NCBI GenBank assembly: GCA_024653945.1
Contig: JANLIT010000002.1
Coordinates: forward strand, 80,255 to 144,254
Direction: 5' to 3'
DNA: 64,000 nucleotides
Source: Candidatus Campbellbacteria bacterium
Lineage (GTDB): Bacteria > Patescibacteriota > Minisyncoccia > Phycocordibacterales > EsbW-18
In this document: piece by piece, positions 2,004 through 48,483 of the stretch
How positions within the stretch are numbered: position 1 is the first letter of the stretch
Layout: each line of letters opens with the position of its first letter
Program-made: the position numbers and the translations under genes
Notes under the pieces: model-generated
Told to the model about the DNA's origin: nothing
Seen by the model: the letters and a program-made list of their open reading frames with translations, nothing else
Database searches by the model: none

Positions 2004-2014
2004 ATTTATTACAT

Positions 2015-3401: not shown

Positions 3402-3459
3402 GTCCCAATCCTAGCGCATCAAGATAAATTTGGGATAAAGTAAAGTATCCCAAATTTTT

Positions 3460-3530: not shown

Positions 3531-3538
3531 CCGTAGTT

Positions 3539-3958
3539 CTAAAGGACATTCTCAATGAAGAGTGTATGAGCTGTTTTGTCCTTTAGATTAAGTCGAATTG
3601 CCACAACATCTACCTGATACCGTGTTTCACGTGAAATATGTTTCTCAACTAGGTATGTCTGAATTGCCCTAGAAAGTCGCTCGAGCTTTTCACGCGTAAC
3701 GTGTTCCTCAGGTCTGATCATCGAGGTTAAACCTTGATAACCTGTTTCACGTGAAACGACACCGTTCCCTGTTTCGCATGAAACACATTTAACTTCAACA
3801 AATCTCAAAACTTTATTCTTTTGGGCAATAATATCTATCTCTCCCCATTTCTTTAGATAGTGTCTTTCTGTAATCTTAAAACCTCGTTTCACAAGAAACA
3901 GACACGCTAATTCTTCTCCTATTTTGCCTATTTTGATGTGTTTTGGGTCATTTTTCAT
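3539..3958 (-). CDS. YraN/UPF0102-family endonuclease-like protein carrying in-frame palindromic repeat insertions
   Basis: N-terminus GKIGEELACLFLVKRGFKI...WGEIDIIAQKNKVLRFVEVK and C-terminus RYQVDVVAI match UPF0102. The central part contains the repeated peptide VSRET, encoded by GTTTCACGTGAAAC palindromes. Confidence 0.6.
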   Translation of the reverse strand: MKNDPKHIKIGKIGEELACLFLVKRGFKITERHYLKKWGEIDIIAQKNKVLRFVEVKCVSCETGNGVVSRETGYQGLTSMIRPEEHVTREKLERLSRAIQTYLVEKHISRETRYQVDVVAIRLNLKDKTAHTLFIENVL

Positions 3959-4008
3959 GGAAAATAAGATTTCATGTGTAACAAATACCTATATGTTTCA
4001 CGTGAAAC
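3624..4008. repeat. Array of five copies of the 14-bp palindrome GTTTCACGTGAAAC (two exact, three 1-2 mismatch)
   Basis: Copies at 3624-3637 (GTTTCACGTGAAAT), 3744-3757 (exact), 3771-3784 (GTTTCGCATGAAAC), 3886-3899 (GTTTCACAAGAAAC) and 3995-4008 (exact, in the promoter region upstream of the YraN-like start). Confidence 0.7.
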
Positions 4009-4061
4009 ACTTATATCGGACATTATTAGAGACAAATTCTATAATATGGCTTAACTGGGCT

Positions 4062-4118
4062 ATTTTACACTGATATTTGCCTTTATTTTACACATGTCCA
4101 ATTGCCTGTCTTTTACAC
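4062..4118. repeat. Three iteron-like direct repeats (A)TTTTACAC spaced 23-25 bp apart
   Basis: ctATTTTACACtgatatttgcc, ttATTTTACACatgtccaattgcc and tcTTTTACACatatcc. They lie in the divergent region between the YraN-like gene and the tRNA cluster. Confidence 0.4.
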
Positions 4119-4285
4119 ATATCCCCGTTGTTGTCCACAGTTTTAGCCATTTTACCCTTTTAAAATAAAGTTTTCTTAAAGACATGGTTGTTTTGTCTTT
4201 ATAAAAATTTTATCTATTATCTTTTGGTCGAGAGTTGGTTAGAATTTGCTAAATTTTTTTATCTGATTTGCTCACAAAAAGATTA

Positions 4286-4317
4286 TTGACATACAAATTA
4301 TCGTATATTGTTATAAA
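4286..4317 (+). promoter_or_regulatory. Candidate promoter for the tRNA-Gly/tRNA-Arg transcription unit
   Basis: TTGACA at 4286-4291, with TGtTATAAA-like extended -10 elements downstream. The spacing is ambiguous. Confidence 0.3.
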
Positions 4318-4388
4318 CATATGGTAAATTCAGTGAAAATAGATATACTGTTCTTTGCGGTGGACTCGTCCGCCGAACAACGTGCAAG

Positions 4389-4459
4389 GCGGGCATGGTT
4401 TAGTGGTAGAACACGTCCTTGCCAAGGACGAGACGGGAGTTCGATTCTCCCTGCCCGCA
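4389..4459 (+). tRNA. tRNA-Gly (anticodon GCC)
   Basis: Acceptor GCGGGCA/TGCCCGC; D-arm GTTT-AGTGGTA-GAAC; anticodon stem CGTCC/GGACG with loop TTGCCAA; T-arm GGGAG-TTCGATT-CTCCC; discriminator A. Confidence 0.8.
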
Positions 4460-4498
4460 CACAGAAACAGGTTATAATAAATAAAGCTTATTAATGTT

Positions 4499-4570
4499 GC
4501 TCCCGTGGTGAAATGGATATCATGACAGGCTTCGAACCTGTTGTTGGGGGTTCGAATCCCTCCGGGAGCA
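4499..4570 (+). tRNA. tRNA-Arg (anticodon TCG)
   Basis: Acceptor GCTCCCG/CGGGAGC; D-arm GTGA-AATGGATA-TCAT; anticodon stem ACAGG/CCTGT with loop CTTCGAA; T-arm GGGGG-TTCGAAT-CCCTC; discriminator A. Confidence 0.7.
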
Positions 4571-4592
4571 CAGAGTGTAATACAATGTTTTC

Positions 4593-6312: not shown

Positions 6313-6537
6313 CTATCTCTGCCAAACCCGAAGTGCCGGGAATCCGTTCACAGCGTCTAGAGTCATCAGATTACCAGGAGCCGTAACGTAAAGTTCACTC
6401 TCCCGAGTCCTCGCTTGAATCTCCGCGTGTTGGAAGAATCCCCTCAGTGAGGTGGTGGCGGTCTTGTTCATGATGAATACCTCACCAAACGGGTTCACGC
6501 GGACGAGAATGCGACCGTCGTCAAAAACCGTTTTCAT
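6313..6537 (-). CDS. Hypothetical small protein (74 aa)
   Basis: Intact ORF with a strong sigma70-type promoter upstream on the minus strand. No recognisable domain. Confidence 0.4.
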   Translation of the reverse strand: MKTVFDDGRILVRVNPFGEVFIMNKTATTSLRGFFQHAEIQARTRESELYVTAPGNLMTLDAVNGFPALRVWQR

Positions 6538-6589: not shown

Positions 6590-6617
6590 ATTATATTACA
6601 TTTTTTATTATTGTCAA
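6590..6617 (-). promoter_or_regulatory. Sigma70-type promoter (TTGACA-16-TATAAT) for the 6313-6537 gene
   Basis: The minus strand reads TTGACAataataaaaaatgtaaTATAAT. The 20-bp GC palindrome sits 19 bp upstream of the -35. Confidence 0.55.
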
Positions 6618-7208: not shown

Positions 7209-7218
7209 GGCTTACTAC

Positions 7219-7261
7219 TTTTCCCGACGTTTCAGTCGGGACCCCGACCACAGCGTCGGGG
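7219..7261. repeat. Two-hairpin 46-bp repeat, copy A, abutting the xth stop
   Basis: CCCGACGTTTCAGTCGGG plus ACCCCGACCACAGCGTCGGGG. Copies at 22322-22367 and 24344-24392 (inverted) have a few loop changes (copy C almost identical, copy B three or four differences). Confidence 0.65.
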
Positions 7262-8035
7262 CTACTTACTACTTACTTCTAACCCAACCGGGCAGTGATC
7301 GGAGCCGTACACATCCGAAAGTATTTCTGAACGTTTAATTTTTGGAAGAAGATTTTGAGAAACAATAAAGTAGTCCAATCGCCAACCAATATTTCTATCT
7401 CGTGCGCGAGAAATGGTATCCCAATATGAGTAGGCATTTTTTGTGTCGGGATGAAAATGTCGGAATGTGTCAACAAATCCGGCGGAGAGAACTTCATCCA
7501 TCCACGCGCGTTCTTCTGGCAAAAATCCAACGTGTCCTTCATTTTCTTTCGGTCGAGCAATGTCTATTTCTTCATGCGCGACATTGACGTCACCACAAAA
7601 AATCACCTTTTTGCCATTTTTCCTTAGTTTTTTAATGTGTTCCAAAAATGCGTCATAAAAATCAAGCTTGTACTGAAGCTTTTCTGGAGAACCCCCTCCG
7701 TTTGGAAAATAGACATTCAAAAGTACAAAATCTTCAAAAGCGGCTTCAATAAGACGTCCTTGGGTGTTGAACTTTTCAGGTAACACATCAAAAGAGACAC
7801 TTTTAGGCTCTTTTTTTGAGTACACGGCTACACCACTATATCCTTTTCGTTCTTTTGATGAGTTGAAATAGGCAAAATAACCTTCTGGCTTTTGAACTTC
7901 TGGAGAAAGTTGGCCTTCTTCTACTTTCGTTTCTTGAAGGCAAAAAATATCAGGTTTTTCTTGTTCAAACCAATCCCAATACCCTTGATTAAAGAGTGAG
8001 CGAAGTCCGTTTACATTCCACGAGATAATTCTCAT
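7262..8035 (-). CDS. xth: Exodeoxyribonuclease III (AP endonuclease)
   Basis: MRIISWNVNGLRS...IFCLQETK...GDVNVAHEEIDI...SDHCPV are the ExoIII/EEP signatures. The start is taken at MRIIS; the ORF track extends upstream to 8074. The ATG lies within the left flank of MITE copy c. The last four codons plus stop are encoded by CTACTTACTACTTAC. Confidence 0.85.
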   Translation of the reverse strand: MRIISWNVNGLRSLFNQGYWDWFEQEKPDIFCLQETKVEEGQLSPEVQKPEGYFAYFNSSKERKGYSGVAVYSKKEPKSVSFDVLPEKFNTQGRLIEAAFEDFVLLNVYFPNGGGSPEKLQYKLDFYDAFLEHIKKLRKNGKKVIFCGDVNVAHEEIDIARPKENEGHVGFLPEERAWMDEVLSAGFVDTFRHFHPDTKNAYSYWDTISRARDRNIGWRLDYFIVSQNLLPKIKRSEILSDVYGSDHCPVGLEVSSK

Positions 8036-8688: not shown

Positions 8689-11127
8689 CTAATTACTATA
8701 CTTAGTTAGTGGCACTGTTCCGTTTGTTGGTTGTGAATACAGTGTTTGAATTACACAACTAGTGTATGTGAGCCAAGAACTCAACATGGTGTCAGCACCT
8801 ATAACTTGTGTTCCGCTGACTTGTAATGTTGGAAGGTGGCAACCTGGAACCTCACCTCCACCCCCACCTCCGTCTCCGGGAGGAACTGGGGGTACCGGTG
8901 GTCCCACTGGCACCACATTACTATCAAAGAGATACGCGTTACGTATACCTCCGGCCATTATTTTTCCCTGCGGAGTCATAAAGAGGTGTAAAGGTTGTCC
9001 TGCCGATTCACCTATACTGGCTGTTCCATAATCTCGGCGTAGAGGTGCTTCTGCGACACCGGCAAGCGTGCCGTCGTGCCACAAGGTGAAATATCTCTCA
9101 TCAATACCCGGATAACCAGCAAACACCAGGTATGAGCCGGCAACCGCAAAAGCAGGAAATATGGCCATGTCTCGTCTGTTGATATTTGTAAGAACGCTTT
9201 CTGGTACTGTCAATTCTCCTGCAGGTTCCAATCCGTTTGCGCCACTCGTAAAAAGAAAAATTCGATTTGAGTAATTAAGATTTCTTCCCGACTGGCCAGT
9301 GTGTGAAGTCACCGCCAAGCGTTTTGGAGTAGATGTGTAATCAATTGCCACTCTTCCGGGACACAAATTATCCGGCAGTGTTAGTTCTTGTACTGATGTG
9401 ATCCCACCGTCTGATTCGGCTCTGAAAACAGTTGGCGTATACGAGACTGGGGTAGTACACCTGTCAGATGAATTTCCTACGCGTCCAAGTATGTAATCTC
9501 CAAAACCCACAAGAGGTCTCAGCGAGTGTTCCTCTCGCTCCGCAAGTATCTGGAGTGATGGTGTGGAAAGGGTTACATCTCTACCACTGTTTCCATCAAG
9601 ACCAACTTGTACGTTACCGATTACTTTGCCATTGGCGGCGGCAAAGTTACTGTTGCGAATAATAAAATTTGATGAGGGTGAGAAAAGTACACCCCCCCCA
9701 GAAACTTGATAATATCCCGCGTGTTCGGCTCCCGCTCCATACGTATTTCCCGAGACACTTCCACCGTTCGAGCGAACTGCCATAAAAAATCCTCTATCAC
9801 CATCGGCAACCATTTGAGATTCGGCATTTCCGTGGAAGAACAGCGTCTGAAACCTCGAACCACCATCCATGCAAAGATCACGTTGAGAAATAAGTGTACC
9901 ATCATCTTTAAAGAACCACGCTCCACCTTGTCGAAAAGGTGGATATGAGCTCAAGTAATTTTGATCTTTAGGACCACCACACGCACCAGAGAATGCGAAC
10001 GCACCGTTTGCATATGCTGCACTTTGGATATTCTGAGTGCCAAATCTTGGTCCTGGATACACCATTAAATTAGGTAGATCAAGCAGTGTCGCAACAAGCG
10101 GTAATCGCAAACCCGCCTCTGGCGCAGCAACAAAAGGCACTTCAAGATCACAGTGACGCGTTCCGTGAGAATTTGAAACCGTCATAGTAAAGACAGTGTC
10201 TTTTGTTATTGGTCCAGTTACAATACTGCCTGTTTGTTGAGAGTCCGCACGTGCAGGATCTGGAGCACCAACAGTTGGTGTACCTGAAGGAGTAGCTGGA
10301 GCATCATCAGCTTCTATTGAAATAGTTGTTGGTAAATATCCCACGGTGTACGCGAGCGTTACCGTTCCCCCCGTTGCTGTTTCCGGATTACTTCTCATTT
10401 GACAATTTGGTGCGTGGGGAGAGGGTGGTGCACCAGAAGTAACAGTTAAATTTGATGATATGGTGAGGCCGGCATACATGGCGTTAATCTGCGCAACACC
10501 CGCATGAAGTCCCAAAATTTCTTGTAGATTTCCACCGTGAGGAGAACCTGCGTTGTGAATAATCGTACCTTCCTGTGGAGAAGAAAATGTTGTGTAGCCA
10601 CTCACATCATTCCAACTCCCTCCATCGGCACTATATTCGGAACCAAAAATAGCGGGGTTACTACCGGCCTGCACCGTTTGAGGCGCTGGGTTCATGCGCA
10701 AAGATGGCCCGCCAGATGGAGCCGCTGGTTCATACCCAAGAAAAAACAATATTGAAGTTTCAAAAGGACATTGAATTGTTGCGGTTGGGGGATTACCTGC
10801 ATTAATCAACACAAGACGAGAGGTTCCAGCCATTGGCTCTACATCAATACGATATCCCCCAGGAGGTAATGGGGCACCACTATTTGTTGTGTTAACACTC
10901 TGAAAGGTTTGACCATTTCCTGGGAAAAAACGTGATGAGGAAATGACGGTCCCAGCGGGTCCTGTGATAGTAAAGGCGGGGTATGTGTTGAGAGGAAGTT
11001 GGCTACGTGAAAAACCGACACTAATATGATTACATGCATCCACAGCTGATGCGTTTTGAATATTAAACGACGCAAACCCAACAACGCTCAGAGCGACGAC
11101 AGCTATTCCAAGGAGATATTTTTTCAT
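8689..11127 (-). CDS. Large secreted protein (812 aa), possibly beta-helix/adhesin-like
   Basis: Signal peptide MKKYLLGIAVVALSVVGFASFNIQNASA. Gly/Ser/Asn-rich with repeated NG/SG motifs and a C-terminal PPVPPVPPGDGGGGGG linker. Function unknown. Confidence 0.6.
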   Translation of the reverse strand: MKKYLLGIAVVALSVVGFASFNIQNASAVDACNHISVGFSRSQLPLNTYPAFTITGPAGTVISSSRFFPGNGQTFQSVNTTNSGAPLPPGGYRIDVEPMAGTSRLVLINAGNPPTATIQCPFETSILFFLGYEPAAPSGGPSLRMNPAPQTVQAGSNPAIFGSEYSADGGSWNDVSGYTTFSSPQEGTIIHNAGSPHGGNLQEILGLHAGVAQINAMYAGLTISSNLTVTSGAPPSPHAPNCQMRSNPETATGGTVTLAYTVGYLPTTISIEADDAPATPSGTPTVGAPDPARADSQQTGSIVTGPITKDTVFTMTVSNSHGTRHCDLEVPFVAAPEAGLRLPLVATLLDLPNLMVYPGPRFGTQNIQSAAYANGAFAFSGACGGPKDQNYLSSYPPFRQGGAWFFKDDGTLISQRDLCMDGGSRFQTLFFHGNAESQMVADGDRGFFMAVRSNGGSVSGNTYGAGAEHAGYYQVSGGGVLFSPSSNFIIRNSNFAAANGKVIGNVQVGLDGNSGRDVTLSTPSLQILAEREEHSLRPLVGFGDYILGRVGNSSDRCTTPVSYTPTVFRAESDGGITSVQELTLPDNLCPGRVAIDYTSTPKRLAVTSHTGQSGRNLNYSNRIFLFTSGANGLEPAGELTVPESVLTNINRRDMAIFPAFAVAGSYLVFAGYPGIDERYFTLWHDGTLAGVAEAPLRRDYGTASIGESAGQPLHLFMTPQGKIMAGGIRNAYLFDSNVVPVGPPVPPVPPGDGGGGGGEVPGCHLPTLQVSGTQVIGADTMLSSWLTYTSCVIQTLYSQPTNGTVPLTKYSN

Positions 11128-12208: not shown

Positions 12209-12274
12209 ATTCATACTCCCTATTCTCCCGCACTTTCTAGTGTCGCACAATATTATTTTGCGCAACTTCTCTGC

Positions 12275-12303
12275 TTGACAACAAGAGCTATTCTGTGTAG
12301 AGT
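12275..12303 (+). promoter_or_regulatory. Sigma70-type promoter TTGACA-17-TAGAGT
   Basis: cTTGACAacaagagctattctgtgTAGAGT. An AAGGAGAGG SD and the ATG at 12340 follow. Confidence 0.5.
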
Positions 12304-12339
12304 GTGCGCAGAAAGATCGGCAACCAAAGGAGAGGTGGT

Positions 12340-12708
12340 ATGAGCAACGGAAGGTTTCCGAATTACCCCGGCTCAAAAAAAGAGGGGATGCTTCTGAAGT
12401 TTCCAAGCTCTTCGAGCATTGGAAAGGGGATTGTTGTGGAAATGGGAAGCGAAACCGAGAAGCCAGCGACTTCAAGGGCAGAAGTTGCCAGAAAGTTCTA
12501 CCGAATGGAGCTCTACCTTGGAGCTCTTCAGGGAAGGATCCGGCCCGAGAACATCGCCAGTAGGAAGTCGGGCCTCAAGGAGTTGAGTGACTCTCAGCTT
12601 CTCAACGTGGTTGAGAACTCGAGCGAGACGACGTGGGGGGTGCACCCGAGTTTCTACTGGGCGCTGTCGGAAATCATTCGTGAACGAGGCATTCCGCTTC
12701 TTCCGTGA
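12340..12708 (+). CDS. Hypothetical protein (122 aa)
   Basis: The ORF is preceded by SD AAGGAGAGGTGG 2 nt from the ATG and by the promoter at 12275. Confidence 0.45.
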   Translation: MSNGRFPNYPGSKKEGMLLKFPSSSSIGKGIVVEMGSETEKPATSRAEVARKFYRMELYLGALQGRIRPENIASRKSGLKELSDSQLLNVVENSSETTWGVHPSFYWALSEIIRERGIPLLP

Positions 12709-12745
12709 TGGTAACCATGTTCTTTAACAAAAGGGAGAGATGGGT

Positions 12746-12997
12746 ATGAACTGGATGAACATGTTGTACTGGGTCATCGGTATCATCGGATACATCCTGA
12801 TGGGCGGTTTGGTCGTTCGGACTGCCCGAAACAGGGGCTACGATAAACCCGAATTTTGGTGGGGAATGCCCAGATTCCTCATCATTCTACTCGTACCGAG
12901 TCCCCTCATGGGTCTTCTGTGGCCACTCTCGGTCCTGACCCACATCGTTTTGGACGGTATCGAGTTTGTTTTCAAAAGCCTCAACGGCTTCAAATAG
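12746..12997 (+). CDS. Small hypothetical membrane protein (83 aa)
   Basis: Two hydrophobic helices (LYWVIGIIGYILMGGLVV; FLIILLVPSPLMGLLWPLSVL). SD GGGAGAGA. Terminator downstream. Confidence 0.45.
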   Translation: MNWMNMLYWVIGIIGYILMGGLVVRTARNRGYDKPEFWWGMPRFLIILLVPSPLMGLLWPLSVLTHIVLDGIEFVFKSLNGFK

Positions 12998-13666: not shown

Positions 13667-13794
13667 TTCCTTGCACGCAAGGACTGCAAAATATCAAATA
13701 CCAAATGACAAACAATCCTGTTATCATTTGGATTAAGGTCGTTGAATTTTTTTGATATTTGTTATTTGAACTTTGTAATTTATTTTAAATATTT

Positions 13795-14847: not shown

Positions 14848-14875
14848 TTGACAAACATGTATTTAGGCATATAAT
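14848..14875 (+). promoter_or_regulatory. Sigma70-type promoter TTGACA-16-TATAAT
   Basis: cTTGACAaacatgtatttaggcaTATAATg, upstream of the sigma-region-4 protein gene. Confidence 0.6.
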
Positions 14876-14931: not shown

Positions 14932-15369
14932 ATGGCGAGAGCACAGAAGTCCAAGCTTTCCACGATGGGTTCCCTGATGAAGGCAATCAGGGAGGCACTC
15001 AACCGACAAGTCAGCGTCGCGGCGGTGGAGATCAACTACCGCCTCACCCTCACCGCCGACGAGGTCCGTTCGACCCCCTGGCTTGCGGGTCTCGGGACAC
15101 AGCCCCTGAACCCCGAAGAGATTGCTGGACAACACGAGCTCCACAAACTCATCGAGGGCATTCTCCACCAGGAGAAGTTCCTCTCCAAGAGGGAGAAAGA
15201 GGTCCTGAGGCTCTACTTCGGGTTTGGGTGCAAGGAACACTCAACCTTCAAAGAGGTGGGGAAAGTTCTAGGGATTAGCGCCAACTGCGCCTGCCAGCAC
15301 CTCCACAAGGCCGTTAAGAAGTTGCGCCGTTCCCCCAAAGGACGGCAACTCGAGGCCTTCCTCAAGTAG
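14932..15369 (+). CDS. Sigma-70 region 3/4-only protein (145 aa) lacking region 2
   Basis: LSKREKEVLRLYFGFGCKEHSTFKEVGKVLGISANCACQHLHKAVKKLRR is a sigma70 region-4 HTH. No region 2 (-10 recognition) is present in this or any neighbouring ORF. SD AAGGAGG. Confidence 0.55.
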   Translation: MARAQKSKLSTMGSLMKAIREALNRQVSVAAVEINYRLTLTADEVRSTPWLAGLGTQPLNPEEIAGQHELHKLIEGILHQEKFLSKREKEVLRLYFGFGCKEHSTFKEVGKVLGISANCACQHLHKAVKKLRRSPKGRQLEAFLK

Positions 15370-17341: not shown

Positions 17342-17551
17342 ATGGCACGAGGTAGACTAGTTCTGAAACAGAAGGTGAAGTCGTTCTTTGAACCATTGGG
17401 CCAAGGTCCGGCCCTCGTATATCGCCACCTTGACGAGATGGTGAATGCCCTTGGTGCGACCAAAATCATCTCGATCAAAGATGACGTGTATGAGTACCCC
17501 GACAGAAGCAGGGCCATCATCCGCGTCGTTGTGTACGAAACCAACAAGTAG
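17342..17551 (+). CDS. Small hypothetical protein (69 aa)
   Basis: SD AAAGGAGAAA. Terminator at 17574-17603. Confidence 0.4.
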   Translation: MARGRLVLKQKVKSFFEPLGQGPALVYRHLDEMVNALGATKIISIKDDVYEYPDRSRAIIRVVVYETNK

Positions 17552-17573
17552 CCGTTCGCCCCGCTCCGCAGGA

Positions 17574-17603
17574 AGCCCCACGCTTCTCTGTGGGGCTTTT
17601 TCT
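17574..17603 (+). terminator. Rho-independent terminator
   Basis: Stem AGCCCCAC/GTGGGGCT with loop GCTTCTCT, then TTTTTCTTT. Confidence 0.6.
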
Positions 17604-17646
17604 TTACAGGAGTTTCGCTCCTGTGCAGGAGCGAAACTCCTGTAAA
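17603..17646. repeat. 44-bp perfect palindrome H3 (TTTACAGGAGTTTCGCTCCTG TGC AGGAGCGAAACTCCTGTAAA)
   Basis: Shares the outer arms TTTRCAGGAGT...ACTCCTGYAAA with 31956-31999. The inner arms differ, and in each copy the two strands change together so the stem stays perfect. Confidence 0.6.
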
Positions 17647-17789
17647 TTGATTTTTGTGCTATATTCTCAGTATTACAAAGGGGTAATTGCTCGCCTTTAC
17701 ATATACGGGTTTGAACATCATTCCGGGGTCTGCAACCGAGGGGAGATGAAAGTCAGATCTGCAATGTGAAGACGAGCTCAGTTTAGAGT

Positions 17790-20042
17790 ATGAAAAGCAA
17801 AACATTTGAGGTGGCCTTTGGTAACAAGACCCTCTCCGCAGAGTTTAACGACCTCGCCATGCAGGCGAACGGTTCGGTGATTGTTCGCTATGGCAACACC
17901 GCCGTTCTTGCAACTGCAGTCATGGGTTCAAAGGAACGTGAAGGACTGGATTATTTTCCTCTCACCGTTGATTACGAAGAAAAGTTTTACGCTGCGGGAC
18001 AAATTCTTGGAGGCAAGTACATGCGCCGAGAAGGGAAGCCGTCGGATGAAGCAATTCTCTCTGGTCGCGCAGTGGACCGCACAGTGCGTCCGCTCTTTGA
18101 CCAGCGTTTGCGTATTGAGGTGCAAGTTGTCACGACCATTCTTTCAATTGGAGAAGACGACCCAGATGTTATTGCCATTCTTGCAGCATCTCTCGCACTC
18201 AGCGTGTCAGATATTCCATGGGCAGGACCAGTTGGTGCAGTTCGTCTTGGGCGAACACCAGACGGCGCGTGGATAATTAACCCAAACTACGAAGAACGCA
18301 AAACAAATGTGCTTGATTTGCTTGTATGTGGTGCACAACAAAAGGTGAACATGATTGAAACGGGTGCACACCAAGTTTCTGAAGACATTATTATTGAAGG
18401 ACTCACCAAAGCAGTTGAAGAAATTACAAAACTTGAAACATTCCAAAACAATATCATCAAAGAATTAGGAAAAGAGAAAAAAGTATTCACATTTCCAACA
18501 CTCACCGATGCTACTCTCGCACTTTTTGAAAAAGAAATCACACCACAACTTACAGATGCCGTGTTCTGTGGTATTTCTGGTGGAGAAAAAGTTGGTGAAC
18601 TACACCACGCATGGCATGAGCTCCTCAAAACAAGTGCACCCGAGGAAAGTCGTGAACTAGCAGACTTATATTTTGAAGAAAAAGTTGAAGCGGTGTTTGA
18701 CGTTGGAATTCTTTCAGGTAAACGACCTGATGGACGCGACTTTGATACAGTTCGAGAAATCTACACACAAGCAGGAGGCGTTGCGCCAATGCTTCACGGT
18801 GCGGGTGTCTTCTACCGAGGTGAAACACACGTGCTTGCAGCACTCACGCTCGGTGGTCCTGAAGCGGTACAAGAAATGGAAGGGATGGAGGTCAAAGGCA
18901 AAAAAAGCTTTATGTTACACTACAATTTTCCTCCGTACTCAACAGGTGAAACGGGGCGCATGGGTGGCACTAACCGCCGCATGATTGGTCACGGAGCACT
19001 CGCAGAAAAAGCACTCTCCGCCGTTATTCCTCCAAAAGAGCAATTCCCATACACCATTCGTATTGTGTCAGAAGTGATGTCATCAAACGGTTCATCATCA
19101 ATGGGTTCCGTGTGCGGAGGAACGCTTGCACTTCTTGATGCGGGTGTGCCTATTCTTGCCCCTGTTGCAGGTATTGCGATGGGAGTAGTTATTGAAGAAA
19201 TATCAAATGACAAATCACAAATAGCAAAGTATAAGGTGCTTACGGATATTCAAGGACCGGAAGATCACTACGGTGACATGGACTTCAAAGTTGCAGGAAC
19301 GCGCGACGGTGTGACCGCAATGCAAATGGATGTGAAAGTTGCTGGAGTTCCACTTTCTGTTTTTCCAGAAGCATTTGAAAAAGCAAAAAAAGCGCGTCTC
19401 TTCATTTTGGATAAAATTGCAGAGACATTACCAACACACCGTGCAGAAATGAATGTACACGCACCACGTATTCTCGTCACAAAGATTAAAAAAGAATTTA
19501 TTGGTGCAGTGATTGGTGGCGGAGGAAAAACAATCAACCAAATCCGTGAACTAACCGGAACAGAAATTACGATTGAAGAAGATGGAACGGTCTTCATCAC
19601 AGGAAATGTTGAAGGGGCAGAGAAAACAAAGAAAATTATTGAAGGGATTGCGCGTGAGTATCTTGTTGGAGAAAAGTTCGAGGGTGTTGTCACACGCATC
19701 GCAGACTTTGGTTTGTTTGTGCGCATGGGCGATGAAAGCCCATTATCTGGAATGAAGGACACTGAAGGACTCGTGCACATTTCTGAAATTGCACCGTTTC
19801 GTCTTGCATCAATGGACGGTGTTGCAAATGTTGGAGACAAAGTACCCGTCATCATCAAAGAACTTGGTGAAGAAGGAAAAATTAAACTCTCTATCAAAGA
19901 TGCTGATCCTGAATTTGCCGTACGCAAAGGTTTGAAAGAGGGAACTTCCGCTGGAGGAGATTTCCGTTCAGGTGGAGACCACCGACACAGTTCTGGAGGA
20001 TACCGAGGTGGTTCAAGCCACCACAGCGGGCCACGGAGATAG
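17790..20042 (+). CDS. pnp: Polyribonucleotide nucleotidyltransferase (PNPase)
   Basis: 750 aa with two RNase PH domains, KH (IGAVIGGGGKTINQIRE) and S1 (GEKFEGVVTRIADFGLFV) domains, and a Gly/Ser/His-rich C-terminal tail. Confidence 0.92.
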   Translation: MKSKTFEVAFGNKTLSAEFNDLAMQANGSVIVRYGNTAVLATAVMGSKEREGLDYFPLTVDYEEKFYAAGQILGGKYMRREGKPSDEAILSGRAVDRTVRPLFDQRLRIEVQVVTTILSIGEDDPDVIAILAASLALSVSDIPWAGPVGAVRLGRTPDGAWIINPNYEERKTNVLDLLVCGAQQKVNMIETGAHQVSEDIIIEGLTKAVEEITKLETFQNNIIKELGKEKKVFTFPTLTDATLALFEKEITPQLTDAVFCGISGGEKVGELHHAWHELLKTSAPEESRELADLYFEEKVEAVFDVGILSGKRPDGRDFDTVREIYTQAGGVAPMLHGAGVFYRGETHVLAALTLGGPEAVQEMEGMEVKGKKSFMLHYNFPPYSTGETGRMGGTNRRMIGHGALAEKALSAVIPPKEQFPYTIRIVSEVMSSNGSSSMGSVCGGTLALLDAGVPILAPVAGIAMGVVIEEISNDKSQIAKYKVLTDIQGPEDHYGDMDFKVAGTRDGVTAMQMDVKVAGVPLSVFPEAFEKAKKARLFILDKIAETLPTHRAEMNVHAPRILVTKIKKEFIGAVIGGGGKTINQIRELTGTEITIEEDGTVFITGNVEGAEKTKKIIEGIAREYLVGEKFEGVVTRIADFGLFVRMGDESPLSGMKDTEGLVHISEIAPFRLASMDGVANVGDKVPVIIKELGEEGKIKLSIKDADPEFAVRKGLKEGTSAGGDFRSGGDHRHSSGGYRGGSSHHSGPRR

Positions 20043-20141: not shown

Positions 20142-20230
20142 TTGACAAATATTATTATTTATGTATAATGGAGTTTGGACATACCCAACCCGAGTATTCC
20201 ACTTGAGTTGGTTCGAGAACGGGGGGAAAA
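20142..20230 (+). promoter_or_regulatory. Promoter (TTGACA-16-TATAAT) plus conserved leader hairpin of small-membrane-protein cassette 1
   Basis: TTGACAaatattattatttatgTATAAT, then TACCCAACCCGAGtattccaCTTGAGTTGG, a 9/10-bp stem. It is homologous to 29099-29192. Confidence 0.55.
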
Positions 20231-20416
20231 ATGACATCTAGTAGAATTTTTGTCGTCGGTGGGGGACTGTTCTTCGTTATAGGTTGGGTAGCGAACCTCT
20301 TGATCGACAACGACACAAACCACCCCGCCTATGGTGTCGTGTTGGCTCTCCTGATTTTGGGGGGTACCTTCATTGTCGCGGGGGTGAGTTCGAGAACTTT
20401 TTGGGGTAAACAGTAA
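20231..20416 (+). CDS. Small membrane protein (61 aa), paralog of 29193-29381
   Basis: MTSSRIFVVGGGLFFVIGWVANLLIDNDTNHPAYGVVLALLILGGTFIVAGV aligns with MHLSRISFLIGFCLSGFAALETVAIFWYGNETAHYEWAITARLTVGMALMIFGIGV. Two TM helices. Confidence 0.5.
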   Translation: MTSSRIFVVGGGLFFVIGWVANLLIDNDTNHPAYGVVLALLILGGTFIVAGVSSRTFWGKQ

Positions 20417-20452
20417 ACGCAGACAGAAACAACCCCCAGCCGCCCAAGAAAG

Positions 20453-20490
20453 TCGCCCGTGCGTCTTTCACGGGCGGCTTTTCTTTTTCT
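20453..20490 (+). terminator. Rho-independent terminator
   Basis: Stem TCGCCCGTG/CACGGGCGG, then CTTTTCTTTTTCT. A second GC hairpin (GTAGCCCCGCCTCTT-ACAA-GAGGCGGGGCTAC) follows at 20498-20527. Confidence 0.6.
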
Positions 20491-20630
20491 CAAAACGTAG
20501 CCCCGCCTCTTACAAGAGGCGGGGCTACTTACCACTTATTTTTTATAGTTGTATAAAAAAGACCAAACTGGTATTGTCTCGGCAGAGTTGTTCGTTGACA
20601 GGGTAACACTACCCAGAAAGGGACTGGTTT

Positions 20631-22220
20631 ATGAACAATGGTGTCCGCAGATTCGTTTTGTTGGTTTTGGTGGCGTCGCTTTTTCTGATGCAACCCGCCG
20701 TTGCACAAGTGCCGACGGTAACGCCAACACTGACGTTCAACAATCCACTGATTCACCCGTTCGGCCAGCACGTGCTTCACCGAGACGGATGGGACCGCTA
20801 CTTGATGTATTTTTCTATCAACAGTGCGGTACGACACGGAAAGCCTGTTGGTGAAGACTTCACACCCGGCGATTCTGGCACGTACAATACTGCGTGTCAT
20901 ACGTGGTGGGCAGATCGCATTTGGCTCACGTGGAGCTTCGGCGACGGAAAAGACCCATCGGGTTGGAATCAGAATGATGGATACGGAAATACTCCGCCCA
21001 TTTTACTTCTCAACATCGGGGGTCAAGACATCGACGGTGATGGTGTCATGGAGTATGAGGGAGTCGGTGAGCAGGCACTCATCGGCGATCCGTATGTGGT
21101 CTACTGGAACAATCAGTGGCACATGTACTATGAAGGAACCTCAAACTGTGACACGAGCGACGGCATGCTCTTCCACGCAACGGCCGACCACTGGTTCGGT
21201 CCATGGATAAAGAGGGGTCCTGTGAATGGACTTCTCGGCTCTCATGCAAATAGTGGATTGGCGTGGGCAACTGTTTTGCTTGATGAGGGTAACCTCTATC
21301 TGTACTACACGGACGGCAACGTGAGTCTGCGCGCGGCCACGGCATCTGACACCACCGGCCAGAACTTTGTATCTCAAACGATTCCGGTCATTGGACAAAT
21401 GATGTCTCGTGGACATGTGGTAAAAGTGCCTGGAGGCTACAAACTCATCTACGATCTCTTTGTTGGTCTTCCGGTTGTTACTGAAATGCGGTCATCGTTC
21501 TCGATGAATCGATTTTCTTTCCCCGTTGGAGTGAAGATACTCTCCTCAAAGCCCGACTACTTCGGATTTTCCGACACAGGTATGGGGCTACCAACATACT
21601 TGAAAGTTGGAAACGAGGAGCGGGTATATTTCACTGGCCACACGTATTCAGAATCACAGTGGCCGGGTTGGGAGGTCTCGCAAATATGCGTTGCTGTTTT
21701 GGGAACGCAAATTGAGCGACTCTCAAACGGTGGTTTTGAAACAATCACAGCAAACACCAACACTGCTCCTGATGGCTCGTGGATGCGGTACCGATACACA
21801 GGTACCAACTCCAACGTCCTCGTGGCAAACTCTGGAGTTGCCCGTAGTGGAGCTGATAGTGTCCGCCTTGGTGTCAATAACTCGTCGTCGCAGACACTTG
21901 ATCACGTGGCGATAGTAATTCCTGCAAACGCGACGAGTGCGATTCTTAGTTTCTGGTTGTCGGTTGCAACGAGCGAAACTGGCACAACTGCCACGGACAC
22001 TCTCAGTGTGAAGATTGCAAACGCAACTGGCACAGGCACGCTGGGAACGGTGCTCACGTTCAGTAATCGGAGCAATCCAAACGAGGGGTACTTTTTGAAA
22101 GCAGTTGATGTAACGAGATTCCGTGGACAAACCGTCAGGGTTCGATTTATCGGAGCAAACAACTCGACGAGACCTACAGAATTTCGAATTGACGACGTGA
22201 GTCTTACATCAGATGAATAG
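20631..22220 (+). CDS. Secreted protein with a beta-propeller glycoside-hydrolase-like core and a C-terminal beta-sandwich (CBM-like) domain
   Basis: Signal peptide RRFVLLVLVASLFLMQPAVAQ. DPYVVYWNNQWHMYYEG is GH43/GH32-like. The C-terminal LSNGGFE...RVRFIGAN...FRIDDVSL looks like a carbohydrate-binding-type module. Assignment is tentative. Confidence 0.5.
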   Translation: MNNGVRRFVLLVLVASLFLMQPAVAQVPTVTPTLTFNNPLIHPFGQHVLHRDGWDRYLMYFSINSAVRHGKPVGEDFTPGDSGTYNTACHTWWADRIWLTWSFGDGKDPSGWNQNDGYGNTPPILLLNIGGQDIDGDGVMEYEGVGEQALIGDPYVVYWNNQWHMYYEGTSNCDTSDGMLFHATADHWFGPWIKRGPVNGLLGSHANSGLAWATVLLDEGNLYLYYTDGNVSLRAATASDTTGQNFVSQTIPVIGQMMSRGHVVKVPGGYKLIYDLFVGLPVVTEMRSSFSMNRFSFPVGVKILSSKPDYFGFSDTGMGLPTYLKVGNEERVYFTGHTYSESQWPGWEVSQICVAVLGTQIERLSNGGFETITANTNTAPDGSWMRYRYTGTNSNVLVANSGVARSGADSVRLGVNNSSSQTLDHVAIVIPANATSAILSFWLSVATSETGTTATDTLSVKIANATGTGTLGTVLTFSNRSNPNEGYFLKAVDVTRFRGQTVRVRFIGANNSTRPTEFRIDDVSLTSDE

Positions 22221-22232: not shown

Positions 22233-22268
22233 GCCGAGCGATACCCTTTGGGTTCGCTCGGCTTTTTT
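22233..22268 (+). terminator. Rho-independent terminator
   Basis: Stem CCGAGCGATACCC/GGGTTCGCTCGG, then CTTTTTT. A GC hairpin CCCGCCTCTT-GT-AAGAGGCGGG follows at 22286-22307. Confidence 0.6.
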
Positions 22269-22321
22269 ATTTCCCAAAACGAAGTCCCGCCTCTTGTAAG
22301 AGGCGGGGCGTTTCTATTTTC

Positions 22322-22367
22322 TTTTCCCGACGTTTCGGTCGGGACCCCGACCGTAGCGTCGGGGCTA
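22322..22367. repeat. Two-hairpin 46-bp repeat, copy B
   Basis: CCCGACGTTTCGGTCGGG plus ACCCCGACCGTAGCGTCGGGG, followed by CTACTTACTAC. Confidence 0.65.
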
Positions 22368-22445
22368 CTTACTACATTCTACTTATTATTTTCTTATTCT
22401 TTTTTGAGTTTTGGATTTCACATTTTAGTTTTATACTATTCATAT

Positions 22446-24343: not shown

Positions 24344-24392
24344 GTAGCCCCGACGCTATGGTCGGGGTCCCGACTGAAACGTCGGGAAAAGT
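24344..24392. repeat. Two-hairpin 46-bp repeat, copy C (inverted orientation), immediately 3' of the DksA-like stop
   Basis: The reverse complement reads CCCGACGTTTCAGTCGGG plus ACCCCGACCATAGCGTCGGGG. Confidence 0.65.
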
Positions 24393-25264: not shown

Positions 25265-25373
25265 TTTTTCTTTCTACTTTTTACATACTACTGATTTTAT
25301 CCTTGGTATTTGTTTCGAATTTCGATATTCGGATTTTCATTGGTTATTGTTACTTGGCCCTTGGTTATTCCAA
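25265..25373 (+). repeat. ~110-bp upstream repeat, copy 1 (homologous to 29781-29890), containing a tandem (ATTTCG)n-like tract
   Basis: TTTTTCTTTCTACTTTTTACATACTACT...TTTCGAATTTCGATATTCGGATTTTCATTGGTTATTG..TTGG..TTATT aligns with 29781-29890. It ends ~40 bp before the comM GTG start. Confidence 0.6.
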
Positions 25374-25414: not shown

Positions 25415-26977
25415 GTGTCCTTCGCAAAAGTATACAGTGCCCAAACGTCTCTACTCGCGGCTCATATTATTTCCGTCGAGGTGGATGTTTCTAATGGTCT
25501 TCACGCGTTTTCAATTGTGGGACTTCCTGACAAGGCGGTTGAGGAATCTCGCGACCGCGTATCTGCCGCAATAAAAAATAGCAATTTTGAATCGCCCAAA
25601 AGTCGCAACCAAAAAATAGTTATCTCTCTTGCACCGGCCGATATCAAAAAAGAAGGGCCATTGTTTGATGTTGCCATTGCACTTGCATATCTGCGTTCAC
25701 AAGACGATATTCGTTTTAATCCAGAGAAAAAATTATTTCTCGGTGAACTTTCTCTTGATGGGGACGTTCGGCGCATCAGTGGTGTTCTTCCTCTTGTTAT
25801 CAAAGCACAACAAATGGGTTTCACGGAGGTGTTTGTGCCAAGCGACAACACGGCAGAGGCTGCGCTTGTTCGAGGGATTTCCGTGTTTGGTATACGCACA
25901 CTCAAAGAACTCATTGTTCATCTCAATGAAAAGAAAAATCCTGATGATGACGGTAATGATATTCCTAAAATAAAAATACCAACAACACCCGAGACAGAAT
26001 ACATTCCAACGGTTGCACAACACAGTATTGATTTCTCAGATGTGCGCGGACAAACAACGGCAAAACGCGCTCTAGAAATCGCCGCCGCAGGCGGACACAA
26101 CATCGCACTGTGGGGTCCGCCCGGTACAGGAAAAACACTCCTTGCAAAAGCACTCGTGGGTATTCTTCCACCACTCTCATTTGATGAAATGTTAGAAGTA
26201 ACAGCGATTCATTCTGTTGCAGGATTACTTAAAGAACACACCGTCACACACCCACCGTTCCGCTCACCTCACCACACGAGTTCATATGTTTCACTCGTTG
26301 GTGGGGGTGCATTTCCAAAGCCCGGAGAAATTACGCTTGCACATCGTGGTGTTCTTTTCCTAGATGAATTTCCTGAATTTGATAGGCGCGTGATTGAAAG
26401 TTTGCGACAACCACTTGAAGACCGCGTCGTGTCTGTTGCTCGCGTCCGCGGAAGTGCGCAATTTCCTGCAGATACACTCTTGGTCGCCGCACTCAACCCT
26501 TGTCCGTGCGGTAAATGGGGAAGTGGGCGCGCGTGCACCTGCTCACCCCATATTCTTCTTCACTACCAACGGAAAATATCTGGACCAGTGATGGATAGAA
26601 TTGATTTGTGGGTTGAGGTTGCACCGGTTGAACACGCGGACCTTTCTCGTGGAGGGGACGGTGAAGCAAGCGCTGTTGTGCGAGAACGTGTACTGTCTGC
26701 GCGAGCTCTACAGACAAAAAGATTTGAAAACACTACCCGTAGAAAAAACAGCGATATGAATGTGCGGGACCTAGATATATTCACGCCTCTCACAAAAGAG
26801 GTCCGCGACATTCTCAACACATCAGCAAAAAAGTTGGACCTCTCAGCACGTGCGTACCATCGAGTTATTAAAATTGCACGCACCATTGCCGATTTAGAAA
26901 ATACAGAACACATAGAACGCCATCACATTCTTGAAGCGCTCCAATATCGTCCGAAAATGTTTGGAGCTGGAATGTAA
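25415..26977 (+). CDS. comM: YifB/ComM-family Mg-chelatase-like AAA+ ATPase
   Basis: GTG start. The N-terminal ChlI-like domain aligns with YifB from residue 1. Walker A GPPGTGKT. Cys cluster CPCGKWGSGRACTC. Typical C-terminal domain. Confidence 0.85.
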   Translation: MSFAKVYSAQTSLLAAHIISVEVDVSNGLHAFSIVGLPDKAVEESRDRVSAAIKNSNFESPKSRNQKIVISLAPADIKKEGPLFDVAIALAYLRSQDDIRFNPEKKLFLGELSLDGDVRRISGVLPLVIKAQQMGFTEVFVPSDNTAEAALVRGISVFGIRTLKELIVHLNEKKNPDDDGNDIPKIKIPTTPETEYIPTVAQHSIDFSDVRGQTTAKRALEIAAAGGHNIALWGPPGTGKTLLAKALVGILPPLSFDEMLEVTAIHSVAGLLKEHTVTHPPFRSPHHTSSYVSLVGGGAFPKPGEITLAHRGVLFLDEFPEFDRRVIESLRQPLEDRVVSVARVRGSAQFPADTLLVAALNPCPCGKWGSGRACTCSPHILLHYQRKISGPVMDRIDLWVEVAPVEHADLSRGGDGEASAVVRERVLSARALQTKRFENTTRRKNSDMNVRDLDIFTPLTKEVRDILNTSAKKLDLSARAYHRVIKIARTIADLENTEHIERHHILEALQYRPKMFGAGM

Positions 26978-27018
26978 TAACAAATTTCAAATGACAAATA
27001 GCAAATGACAAACAATAT

Positions 27019-29098: not shown

Positions 29099-29192
29099 TT
29101 GACAAATACTATAATTCGTATATAATAGCGTCTGAATGTACCCAACCCGAGCATTTCGCTTGAGTTGGCTCAAAAACAAGGGGAGATGTCCC
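29099..29192 (+). promoter_or_regulatory. Promoter (TTGACA-16-TATAAT) plus conserved leader hairpin of small-membrane-protein cassette 2
   Basis: TTGACAaatactataattcgtaTATAAT, then TACCCAACCCGAGcatttcgCTTGAGTTGG, ending in SD GGGGAG. It is homologous to 20142-20230. Confidence 0.55.
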
Positions 29193-29381
29193 ATGCACCT
29201 GTCAAGAATTTCCTTCCTCATCGGTTTTTGTCTCTCCGGATTTGCGGCGCTGGAAACAGTTGCCATCTTCTGGTACGGCAACGAGACCGCCCACTACGAA
29301 TGGGCCATCACAGCCCGGCTGACTGTGGGAATGGCCCTGATGATTTTCGGCATCGGCGTGGAGGTCTTCCGTAAGAAGTAA
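29193..29381 (+). CDS. Small membrane protein (62 aa), paralog of 20231-20416
   Basis: See the paralog alignment under 20231-20416. The ORF track lists a longer 29136 start, which is unlikely given the SD and leader. Confidence 0.5.
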   Translation: MHLSRISFLIGFCLSGFAALETVAIFWYGNETAHYEWAITARLTVGMALMIFGIGVEVFRKK

Positions 29382-29437
29382 CCTCGATTCAAATTGGGCA
29401 ATCCTGCCCGAGTTGGCTCAAAAAGGAGACTGTAGGC

Positions 29438-29710
29438 ATGAGAAGTGAGACGAGTGACGACGGCGTCACGAGTATCGAGTATGTGGAAAACAGGGGTCAT
29501 GTCGTTGTCCACGGCCATACTGCCGTCGCCGTGAGCAACGACCTTGCGGGAGTTCTGATGAACATCGCCCTCTTCCAGAAGGAGATGTCCGCCCGGTGGA
29601 AGCTCATAGGCCCTATCCAGCAAGGTTCAGGGCCCCGCGGAACTTTCTATGCGACGATGGTCTTCGAAGACCTCGCCGCGGTCAACGTCGACGGTGGGGA
29701 AATCGATTAG
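29438..29710 (+). CDS. Hypothetical protein (90 aa)
   Basis: Its leader carries the 3' half of the cassette leader (CCCGAGTTGGCTCAAAAAGGAG). No recognisable domain. Confidence 0.4.
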   Translation: MRSETSDDGVTSIEYVENRGHVVVHGHTAVAVSNDLAGVLMNIALFQKEMSARWKLIGPIQQGSGPRGTFYATMVFEDLAAVNVDGGEID

Positions 29711-29780
29711 TATTCTCGTCTCTGCCACCACTATCGCCCGCCGGCCAAGCAACATGCACAAGCATGTGCTCGGTCGGCGG

Positions 29781-29890
29781 TTTTTCTTTTCTACTTTCTA
29801 CTTACTACTTTCTACTCGTTTAGGTTTCGGATTTCGATATTCGAATTTCGTATTTTCATTGATTATTGGTGCTTGGTTATTGGTCATTTC
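29781..29890 (+). repeat. ~110-bp upstream repeat, copy 2, upstream of pcrA
   Basis: TTTTTCTTTTCTACTTTCTACTTACTACT...TTTCGGATTTCGATATTCGAATTTCGTATTTTCATTGATTATTGGTGCTTGGTTATTGG aligns with 25265-25373. Confidence 0.6.
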
Positions 29891-29984
29891 TTACCGCTTA
29901 CTACTTACTACTTTCTACTCTTGTTTGTATTTTGTTATTTGCCATTTGATATTTGCTATTTGGCCACCATGCTATTATGCGTCC

Positions 29985-48479: not shown

Positions 48480-48483
48480 CTTG

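Follow-up and report, generated by a model that had tools for sequence, protein, structure and literature searches.

A 64,000-nucleotide (nt) stretch of the metagenome-assembled genome (MAG) of a Candidatus Campbellbacteria bacterium (GCA_024653945.1, contig JANLIT010000002.1, positions 80,255 to 144,254 of the forward strand; hereafter the window) contains two short gene cassettes, A and B, each of which reads from a consensus promoter through a hairpin-bearing leader into an open reading frame (ORF) for a small membrane protein. Homologues of PNPase place the window in Patescibacteria/Paceibacteria. The leader is the subject of this report: a third copy of its hairpin, here called B2, lies in the window behind cassette B, and counterparts occur in related genomes. 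The leaders of cassettes A and B are referred to as winA and winB. The proposed module comprises an 11-base-pair (bp) hairpin with one internal mismatch, a 5- to 6-nt pyrimidine-rich loop (AUUCC, AUUUC, or AAUCCU), a 7- to 11-nt A-rich linker, and a strong Shine-Dalgarno (SD) sequence. It is probably a small element that controls expression in this lineage only, in kind a familiar cis-regulatory or stabilizing leader hairpin. To our knowledge, almost nothing is known about gene regulation in the uncultivated candidate phyla radiation (CPR)/Patescibacteria, from which very few cis-regulatory RNAs have been described.

Two promoter-leader cassettes and a third hairpin

In both cassettes the promoter hexamers match the consensus at 12 of 12 positions and stand 16 nt apart, as an earlier note on this DNA had read them. 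These are the sole two such promoters in the 12 kb scanned; the whole window holds five perfect promoters, every one with a 16-nt spacer, versus 0.03 expected by chance. DNA similarity between the cassettes begins exactly at the -35 hexamer (the preceding 60 nt are 28% identical, a random level) and forms an 86-nt direct repeat of promoter and leader (20142-20227 versus 29099-29184) with 78% identity. From the -10 hexamer, the ATG is 61 nt away in cassette A and 66 nt away in cassette B. Because intrinsic terminators lie on both sides of each cassette, A (20142-20492) and B (29099-29790) are independent transcription units (Table 1).

Within the leaders, the pattern CCAACCCGAG-N7-CTTGAGTTGG has exactly two matches in the window, one per cassette, versus 0.01 expected. 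The copy A hairpin consists of 11 pairs (9 Watson-Crick, 1 G.U, and 1 C.A mismatch), folds at -9.8 kcal/mol, and scores 48.1 bits against a covariance model that was built from four leaders and searched over the window with filters off; the copy B hairpin reaches -12.2 kcal/mol and 49.6 bits. The apical pair is U-A in copy A and C-G in copy B, a single compensatory event. The stem begins 16 nt past the -10 hexamer, ~+9 from the start inferred from the -10. The earlier note had the hairpin ending in the SD, which was not borne out: the A and B hairpins terminate 9 to 11 nt upstream of it. Nor did folding support the SD occlusion that the same note had put up for checking, as the conserved hairpin excludes the SD in every copy. 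The SD of copy A is unpaired in the centroid fold, and only copy B has an occluding structure, a 4-bp mini-hairpin (GGGA/UCCC) that can mask part of the SD. Across the window and its relatives, the spacing of hairpin and SD is conserved, with a mostly A-rich linker of 7 to 11 nt in six of six copies (the promoterless B2 included), and all six hairpins are stable (-8.6 to -12.3 kcal/mol). An alternative hairpin that excludes the main one (CUUGAG-UUGG-YUCRAG) was rejected as much weaker, unpredicted by folding, and not conserved in relatives. Rfam searches, at gathering thresholds over the whole window and at E values up to 10 over both cassettes, returned tRNAs and noise only.

Hydropathy profiles confirmed the predicted mini-proteins with two transmembrane (TM) segments behind both leaders, each ORF being preceded by a good SD. 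The 86-nt repeat is also, as had been claimed, better conserved than what it precedes: global alignment of the two coding sequences (CDSs) gave 32% amino acid (aa), 49% nt, and 39% third-codon-position identity. Paralogy of the mini-proteins, which the earlier note had assumed, is weakly supported, with no similarity by BLASTP between them and a local protein alignment at z = 4.0 (p ~0.002-0.006) against shuffles. Conservation within the repeat is concentrated in two segments. The promoter hexamers (12/12) and the hairpin arms (20/20) are identical between A and B, versus 57 to 69% elsewhere (promoter spacer, 69%; -10 to hairpin, 60%; loop, 4/7; hairpin to SD, 69%), and the chance of 20 of 20 identical arm positions at 62% neutral identity is ~7e-5. 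The hairpin arms are more conserved than the surrounding leader; this and the compensatory stem changes in relatives described below agree with the earlier claim of a functionally constrained leader.

Third codon positions are, in addition, more diverged than unconstrained leader positions (39% versus ~60-69% identity). Since the whole leader is less diverged than synonymous CDS sites, a simple recent duplication of the whole cassette does not account for the pair: the shared promoter-leader behind the earlier claim of a duplicated cassette stands, and the duplication itself was too simple a description. Either the promoter-leader is the more recently copied or homogenized part, or exceptionally fast evolution has driven the CDS apart. 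An N-terminal extension of protein B from an ATG at 29136 (an 81-aa ORF), or a leader peptide, was rejected because copy A has no ATG there. The cassette ORFs are foreign-looking in codon usage, with a GC content at third codon positions (GC3) of 0.58 to 0.77, versus 0.36 to 0.43 in PNPase and the M23 peptidase.

The proteins themselves are orphans. Mini-protein A has no homologue among 5.8 billion proteins; unlike B, it is absent from the public protein set and unannotated in the public record, and its gene was likely missed by annotation. A protein search with mini-protein B matched B itself only (a singleton cluster), and the 90-aa protein encoded behind it matched only itself among 1.84 billion representatives. 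Nothing meaningful was found for the cassette proteins in Pfam and PHROGs; the PADLOC library was not searched.

In front of that 90-aa protein, a partial leader at 29405-29437 had been described, and the gene was thought to reuse the 3' half of the leader. Leader similarity is indeed present there, as part of a complete hairpin (29389-29416) with a diverged 5' arm and loop, so that what precedes this gene is a full third module of hairpin and ribosome-binding site (RBS), promoterless and between two cistrons. B2 begins 8 nt past the stop codon of B and folds at -12.3 kcal/mol. It is the third-best covariance model match in the window after A and B (29386-29425; 17.8 bits, E ~0.09-0.18), and a model trained without B2 still ranks it next-best in 128 kb of searched sequence. 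B2 and copy B have an exact 15-mer (GAGTTGGCTCAAAAA) in common; from B to B2, an A-U pair and a G.U pair have each become G-C, and a C.A mismatch is repaired to U-A. A hairpin and RBS without a promoter, placed between cistrons, tie the module to the RBS and not to the promoter. Three different ORFs are served by it in this one genome.

Table 1. Positions, in the window, of the features of cassettes A and B and of the third hairpin
Feature	Position	Strand	Details
Cassette A promoter	20142-20169	+	-35 TTGACA 20142-20147, 16-nt spacer, -10 TATAAT 20164-20169; 12/12 consensus match
Leader hairpin, copy A	20185-20211	+	5' arm CCAACCCGAGU, loop AUUCC, 3' arm ACUUGAGUUGG
Linker and SD, copy A	20212-20230	+	A-rich UUCGAGAAC, SD GGGGGG 20221-20226, 4-nt spacer to ATG
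Mini-protein A	20231-20416	+	61 aa, ATG 20231, two hydrophobic segments
Intrinsic terminator, cassette A	20448-20492	+	14-bp stem, then T-run
Cassette B promoter	29099-29126	+	-35 TTGACA 29099-29104, 16-nt spacer, -10 TATAAT 29121-29126; 12/12 consensus match
Leader hairpin, copy B	29142-29168	+	5' arm CCAACCCGAGC, loop AUUUC, 3' arm GCUUGAGUUGG
Linker and SD, copy B	29169-29192	+	A-rich CUCAAAAACAA, SD GGGGAG 29180-29185, 7-nt spacer to ATG
Mini-protein B	29193-29381	+	62 aa, ATG 29193, two TM segments; MCR4274618.1 (NUW02_01025), hypothetical protein
Hairpin B2	29389-29416	+	UCAAAUUGGGC-AAUCCU-GCCCGAGUUGG; intercistronic, promoterless; 10/11 positions pair
Linker and SD, B2	29417-29437	+	A-rich CUCAAAA, SD AGGAG 29424-29428, 9-nt spacer to ATG
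90-aa soluble orphan protein	29438-29710	+	MCR4274619.1 (NUW02_01030)
Intrinsic terminator, B/90-aa operon	29738-29790	+	Long GC-rich inverted repeat, then T-run; overlaps repeat family D4

The hairpin in related genomes

The leader inventory covered the window and ~670 kb of related loci. Contigs of relatives with 69 to 92% PNPase identity were compared, among them L015-L018, L020, and L101-L103. Gene order is strongly conserved across these relatives, and two slots are variable: slot A, after PNPase, and slot B, between the M23 peptidase and UvrD. DNA homology between the window and its relatives ends at the PNPase stop codon and returns near 22430 in the former, and ends at 29086 and returns at 29965 in the latter. 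Alignment of slot B across six genomes showed a conserved flank, with TTGAC invariant at the same alignment column.

Hairpins were found in slot B of three relatives, for a set of six instances from four genomes (winA, winB, B2, L020, L017, and L018). The L020 slot opens with TTGACA-16-TATAAT, followed by GACCUUGGG-UAUUCCA-CCUUAGGUC, then GACAAAAAGAGGAAA, and then a 69-aa two-TM protein; its loop and closing pair (G-UAUUCCA-C) are identical to those of winA, while the stems differ at 6 of 11 pairs, with compensation. In L017, CGCUUUGGG-UAUCUUCA-CCCCAAGC precedes GGAGG and an 83-aa membrane protein with possibly three hydrophobic segments, and its 5' arm has UUGGGUAU in common with that of L020. 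L018 carries a shorter hairpin at the same place (GGCGC-AUUUGA-GCGCC), followed by a 60-aa two-TM protein. The loop lies 26 to 32 nt past the -10 hexamer in winA, winB, L020, L017, and L018.

The stems covary. In alignment A4 (five sequences: winA, winB, L020, L017, and L018), 72.7% of cells were paired and 7 of 11 pairs had changed on both sides, giving a score of 0.48 versus a shuffle mean of 0.25; RNAalifold predicted the same helix from this alignment. In alignment A7 (winA, winB, B2, L020, and L017), 87.3% of cells were paired, 6 of 11 pairs had changed on both sides, and the score was 0.62 versus a shuffle mean of 0.32, with slid registers reaching at most 0.31. None of 500 shuffles attained the observed score in either case. 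Over all six hairpins, the pairs comprise 47 Watson-Crick, 6 G.U, and 5 mismatches; because the G.U pairs would mismatch on the antisense strand, a structure of the sense-strand RNA is favored over a DNA palindrome. The loop is partly conserved (A-U/A-U-Y-C) while the stems change. The earlier note had called for a search for covariation across copies, and this search was positive (6 to 7 of 11 pairs double-changed, 0.48-0.62 versus 0.25-0.32 for shuffles): compensatory changes occur at homologous positions across genomes, which, with ~four independent sequences, is suggestive of a structured cis-regulatory RNA.

Genetic context is consistent as well: a small orphan ORF always follows, its SD 7 to 11 nt past the hairpin. 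Of the six ORFs, five encode small membrane proteins (four of these with two hydrophobic segments), and four of the six hairpin copies occupy the same M23-UvrD slot. A chain of weak similarities that extends the A-B alignment (B-L020, z = 2.4; L020-L018, z = 3.6; L018-L101, z = 5.0) is consistent with the mini-proteins of the slots forming one fast-evolving small membrane protein family.

Beyond these relatives, a metagenome scan with an M23 peptidase alignment recovered 80 loci from distant Paceibacteria, none with a comparable cassette and none with a covariance model match better than E 0.3. Together with one relative that lacks the hairpin (L101) and another that lacks the gene (L102), these loci indicate that the motif is restricted to a narrow clade. 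An exact and a degenerate hairpin pattern, run against species-representative genomes, gave only 14 self-complementary chance matches in unrelated taxa. Pattern scans gave 0 matches in JGI metagenomes and, for the window and L020 hairpins, 0 matches in IMG/VR; blastn of cassette B against phage records found no match, and a literature search on such a leader found nothing relevant.

Candidate functions of the leader

We tentatively favor the reading that hairpin and RBS form a cis-acting leader, confined to this lineage, by which the stability or translation of small accessory genes is set. In one Candidatus Campbellbacteria (Patescibacteria) clade, the module would be part of mRNAs whose accessory genes are small and evolve fast. 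Promoter, hairpin, and two-TM mini-gene in slot B would be ancestral to that clade; copy A, downstream of PNPase, would be an intragenomic copy of the promoter-leader; and B2 would be the same hairpin-RBS module placed before an unrelated 90-aa gene inside an operon. The hairpin would act as sense-strand RNA, travel with the RBS rather than with the promoter, and most likely set protein amount. It might do so by shielding the transcript, or the processed downstream cistron, against nuclease entry, or by holding the adjacent A-rich RBS region free from upstream pairing, in which case the leader would be a constitutive expression module rather than a sensor. Stabilizer or insulator stem-loops of the 5' untranslated region (UTR), such as the Escherichia coli ompA 5' UTR and the Bacillus subtilis aprE and ermC leaders, resemble it in their stable hairpin without a U-tract, their strong transcription, and the unstructured strong RBS that follows, as well as, by analogy, in acting in cis and being movable between coding sequences (here, three copies before different ORFs). 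They differ from it in having a 5' tail of 4 nt or fewer (~8-9 nt is predicted here); moreover, one copy here lies between cistrons, and the loop is partly conserved, which a pure stabilizer would not need.

Several observations weigh against this reading. The sample is biased and by eye, since the hairpins of relatives were picked partly for being hairpins at that position, and winA and winB are near-duplicates, which leaves ~four independent sequences among the six. The A7 alignment was fitted to the covariance model's own structure. The L018 stem has 5 bp only, and L101 has a small gene in slot B without an equivalent hairpin. Whole-leader folding energies are no better than those of shuffles (z = +1.5 and -0.9), and at ~8-9 nt the predicted single-stranded 5' tail exceeds what a classic 5'-terminal protective stem-loop would lead one to expect.

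The main rival, among the functions that the earlier note had also suggested (an sRNA or protein binding site, or a small riboregulator), makes the leader a regulated riboregulator. Its loop, as an anti-SD, would pair with the SD 20 to 25 nt downstream in an H-type pseudoknot whose A-rich linker runs along the stem, or else would dock a trans-acting protein or small RNA, so that translation of a potentially harmful membrane protein is throttled or switched; we consider these two forms jointly to be possible, if somewhat unlikely. Within the downstream tail, it is the SD core that forms the best duplex with the loop in five of six leaders, with energies between -4.2 and -6.9 kcal/mol (UUCC x GGAA in winA and L020, AUUUC x GAGAU in winB, UCCU x AGGA in B2, and UAUCUUCA x UGGAGGUA in L017). 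The partial conservation of the loop over changing stems fits such pairing, as does the preference of the winB loop for its own tail (-5.6, versus -1.1 to -3.0 with other tails). This anti-SD-like evidence is weak, however: single cases reach p = 0.04-0.4 against shuffled loops and 0.06-0.6 against random k-mers, matched loop-tail pairs are barely better on average than mismatched ones (-4.77 versus -4.17 kcal/mol), and any CU-rich loop complements any purine-rich SD. Furthermore, the second stem would have just 4 bp in three of the copies; in L018, the loop finds its partner upstream of the SD instead; and no trans partner with at least 14 nt of complementarity was found within the window. 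Known SD-sequestering pseudoknots (preQ1-II and SAM-II riboswitches and the autoregulatory pseudoknots of ribosomal-protein mRNAs) likewise have a pyrimidine-rich loop complementary to a downstream SD, and the A-rich linker here could lie in the stem groove; in contrast to them, the second stem predicted here (4-8 bp) lacks statistical support, and the first is much simpler and matches no Rfam model. A further version, which we regard as doubtful, would see a new translational riboregulator, specific to Patescibacteria, in the combination of hairpin, A-rich linker, and SD, with an anti-SD-like loop held in a pseudoknot or recognized by a factor. It would be portable and repeatedly recruited before rapidly turning-over accessory genes with GC3-rich, foreign-looking codon usage, genes that may mediate episymbiont surface interactions. 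Another unlikely account assigns the leader no specific function, with the likeness of A and B due to recent copying or gene conversion of a strong promoter-leader and the hairpins of relatives being unrelated, generic 5'-UTR hairpins that share the position by coincidence. Other strong-promoter cassettes do carry unrelated hairpins just before the SD (winC, winE, L015_A, and L018_A), and such hairpins are therefore common in the clade; with identical arms, A and B alone provide nearly no covariation; and the sample is small and was chosen by eye. Against this account, winA and L020 agree in loop and closing pair despite 6 of 11 differing stem pairs, L020 and L017 share sequence in the 5' arm, and the distance from the -10 is constant; the model trained without B2 still recovers B2, and the shuffle and slide controls were clearly exceeded.

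The remaining explanations are less probable still. The inverted repeat, with 11-bp arms and a 5- to 7-bp center, might act as DNA, either as the operator of a dimeric repressor just past the transcription start or as the core site of a tyrosine recombinase that exchanges small-gene cassettes; its 11-6-11 geometry recalls that of recombinase core sites, the Xer/dif type among them. A Phage_integrase/Xer-like gene lies ~9 kb upstream in all relatives, both slots vary in content between strains, and in L015 a 24-nt duplication of the PNPase 3' end flanks a cassette. We nonetheless hold a DNA-level role to be very unlikely, as the arms differ strongly between genomes with complementarity kept, a pattern of selection on structure rather than on a protein-recognized sequence, and six G.U pairs are noncomplementary in DNA. 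No arm half-sites were found elsewhere in the window, homology with relatives breaks off before the -35 rather than at the hairpin, and B2 sits inside an operon, far from any promoter. No more credible is a locus of the type I toxin-antitoxin kind, in which the leader would control translation of hydrophobic membrane toxins and be the target of an antisense RNA. The cassettes resemble type I toxin mRNAs (hok, tisB, zorO, and aapA1) in the small hydrophobic orphan ORF, the strong promoter, a structured 5' UTR better conserved than the peptide, and more than one copy per genome at strain-variable intergenic sites. They differ from them in that no antitoxin RNA was found in the 64-kb window (no antisense or divergent opposite-strand promoter overlapping the mRNAs, and no complementary stretch of at least 14 nt elsewhere), in that the conserved fold sequesters neither SD nor standby site, and in that the same leader also serves a soluble 90-aa protein. 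The proteins here, of 60 to 94 aa, have two TM segments, whereas type I toxins typically span the membrane once and stay below 60 aa; no Pfam or PHROG match was found. An RNA thermometer, one of the functions that the earlier note had suggested, is highly improbable. In this reading, heat would melt the leader hairpin and free the SD. Like ROSE and fourU thermometers, the leader has a short 5'-UTR hairpin near the SD, and copy B adds the mini-hairpin over part of the SD; the conserved hairpin, however, stops 7 to 11 nt short of the SD in six of six copies, the SD-covering mini-hairpin is absent from copy A and the relatives, and neither ROSE or fourU features nor an Rfam match was found.

Small mobile DNA elements were also considered. 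An integron attC site lies 3' of a promoterless ORF, carries R''/R' boxes (RYYYAAC/GTTRRRY), and belongs to an array next to intI. The cassettes share with integron gene cassettes their small orphan genes, variable positions, and imperfect hairpin with an unpaired base, and the window arms contain AAC...GTT. They differ in hairpin size (27-29 nt, versus 57-141 nt for attC), in the position of the hairpin 5' of the gene within the transcript, in carrying their own consensus promoters, and in the lack of an intI-adjacent array; the hairpins of L020, L017, and L018 have no AAC/GTT. An attC, a miniature inverted-repeat transposable element (MITE), and a Correia-like element were rejected on size, position, and missing terminal inverted repeats.

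The leader provides a concrete candidate with a clear anatomy (consensus promoter, covarying hairpin, A-rich linker, and SD) that can be tested in a heterologous reporter. It is attached, moreover, to tiny orphan genes that vary between strains, mostly encode membrane proteins, and in part escape annotation. Should it tune or gate the expression of these proteins, the deployment of fast-evolving surface or membrane factors by such reduced genomes would become easier to explain; as no more than a stabilizing hairpin, it would still be a marker for finding unannotated small genes in the clade.

Variable slots and other features

Slot A holds cassette A and a 529-aa gene in the window, an ORF of ~115 aa (read by eye) in L015, and a 109-aa gene in L018; its gene lies on the minus strand in L016 (759 aa), L017 (70 aa), and L101 (147 aa), and the slot has no gene in L020 and L102. 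Slot B, with genes for 62 and 90 aa in the window, holds genes for 83 aa in L017, 60 and 147 aa in L018, 69, 50, and 64 aa in L020, and 94 and 171 aa in L101; the contigs of L015 and L016 end before it. In L102, both variable slots (17455-17859 and 12250-12944) are without a small gene, slot B consisting of the conserved flank and TTGACA, then CTCAAAAAAACGGGAAAT, then UvrD; the mini-gene is thus dispensable, and the slot-B promoter may originally have served UvrD.

The closest relative, L015 (92% PNPase identity), has 24 nt of the PNPase 3' end (ccaccacagtggaccacggagata) as a direct repeat on either side of its small-gene cassette in slot A (~9886-9909 and ~10457-10480), which looks like a target duplication or an att-like signature of cassette insertion. 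The terminator of this cassette is 75% identical to that of cassette A over 56 aligned positions. In the window, a 51-nt direct repeat (20475-20525 and 22259-22309, 86% identical), made up of a terminator tail and a GCCCCGCCTCTT..AAGAGGCGGGGC hairpin, flanks ORF 20631-22220. This ORF is the 529-aa gene, a secreted-looking orphan that is missing from this position in L016 and L017 and has the appearance of an insertion that duplicated the intergenic module. In L103 (8044-15959), a ComM/Mg-chelatase gene is apparently truncated (337 aa), and beyond it an island interrupts synteny, encoding a DNA methylase, MutH, a phage Rep-O-like protein, and serine recombinases.

The three further TTGACA-16-TATAAT promoters of the window all read TTGACAA (6590-6617, minus strand; 14848-14875, plus strand; 60164-60191, minus strand). 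Behind them are short GC-rich ORFs (6313-6537, minus; ~14932-15369, plus; 59835-60125, minus) with GC3 of 0.60 to 0.77, versus 0.36 to 0.43 in PNPase and M23; together they resemble a class of small genes under strong promoters whose codon usage looks foreign. Two of these ORFs, of 74 and 96 aa, are orphans. The third (14932-15369, plus) encodes a stand-alone 145-aa protein that is essentially a sigma-70 region 4 helix-turn-helix domain (Pfam PF04545, E 2e-11) and conceivably a factor that binds -35-like sequences, and a 143-aa protein with the same domain lies at the corresponding place upstream of PNPase in L017 (1890-2321). The leader at 6590 (minus strand) has its own 5-bp hairpin, followed by AAAAAAACAGGAGG.

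Intergenic repeats of other kinds are scattered through the window. REP-like modules of paired hairpins (CCCGAC..GTCGGG and CCCCGAC-N6-GTCGGGG, then CTACT...) with 90% identity lie at 7218-7280, 22321-22383, and 24348-24367. Low-complexity families (CTACTTACTACTTTCTAC..., TTTCGATATTCGAATTTCG..., and AAATGACAAATAGCAAATGAC...) are dispersed between genes, one of them right after the cassette B terminator, at 29786-29922, 22367-22400, 48472-48505, and 63885-63918, with further sites at 25312-25369 and 29831-29888 and at 13689-13716 and 26975-27016. Near the start of the window (1373-4571), five tRNA genes (Gly-TCC, Pro-TGG, Pro-GGG, Gly-GCC, and Arg-TCG) form a cluster that uses both strands.

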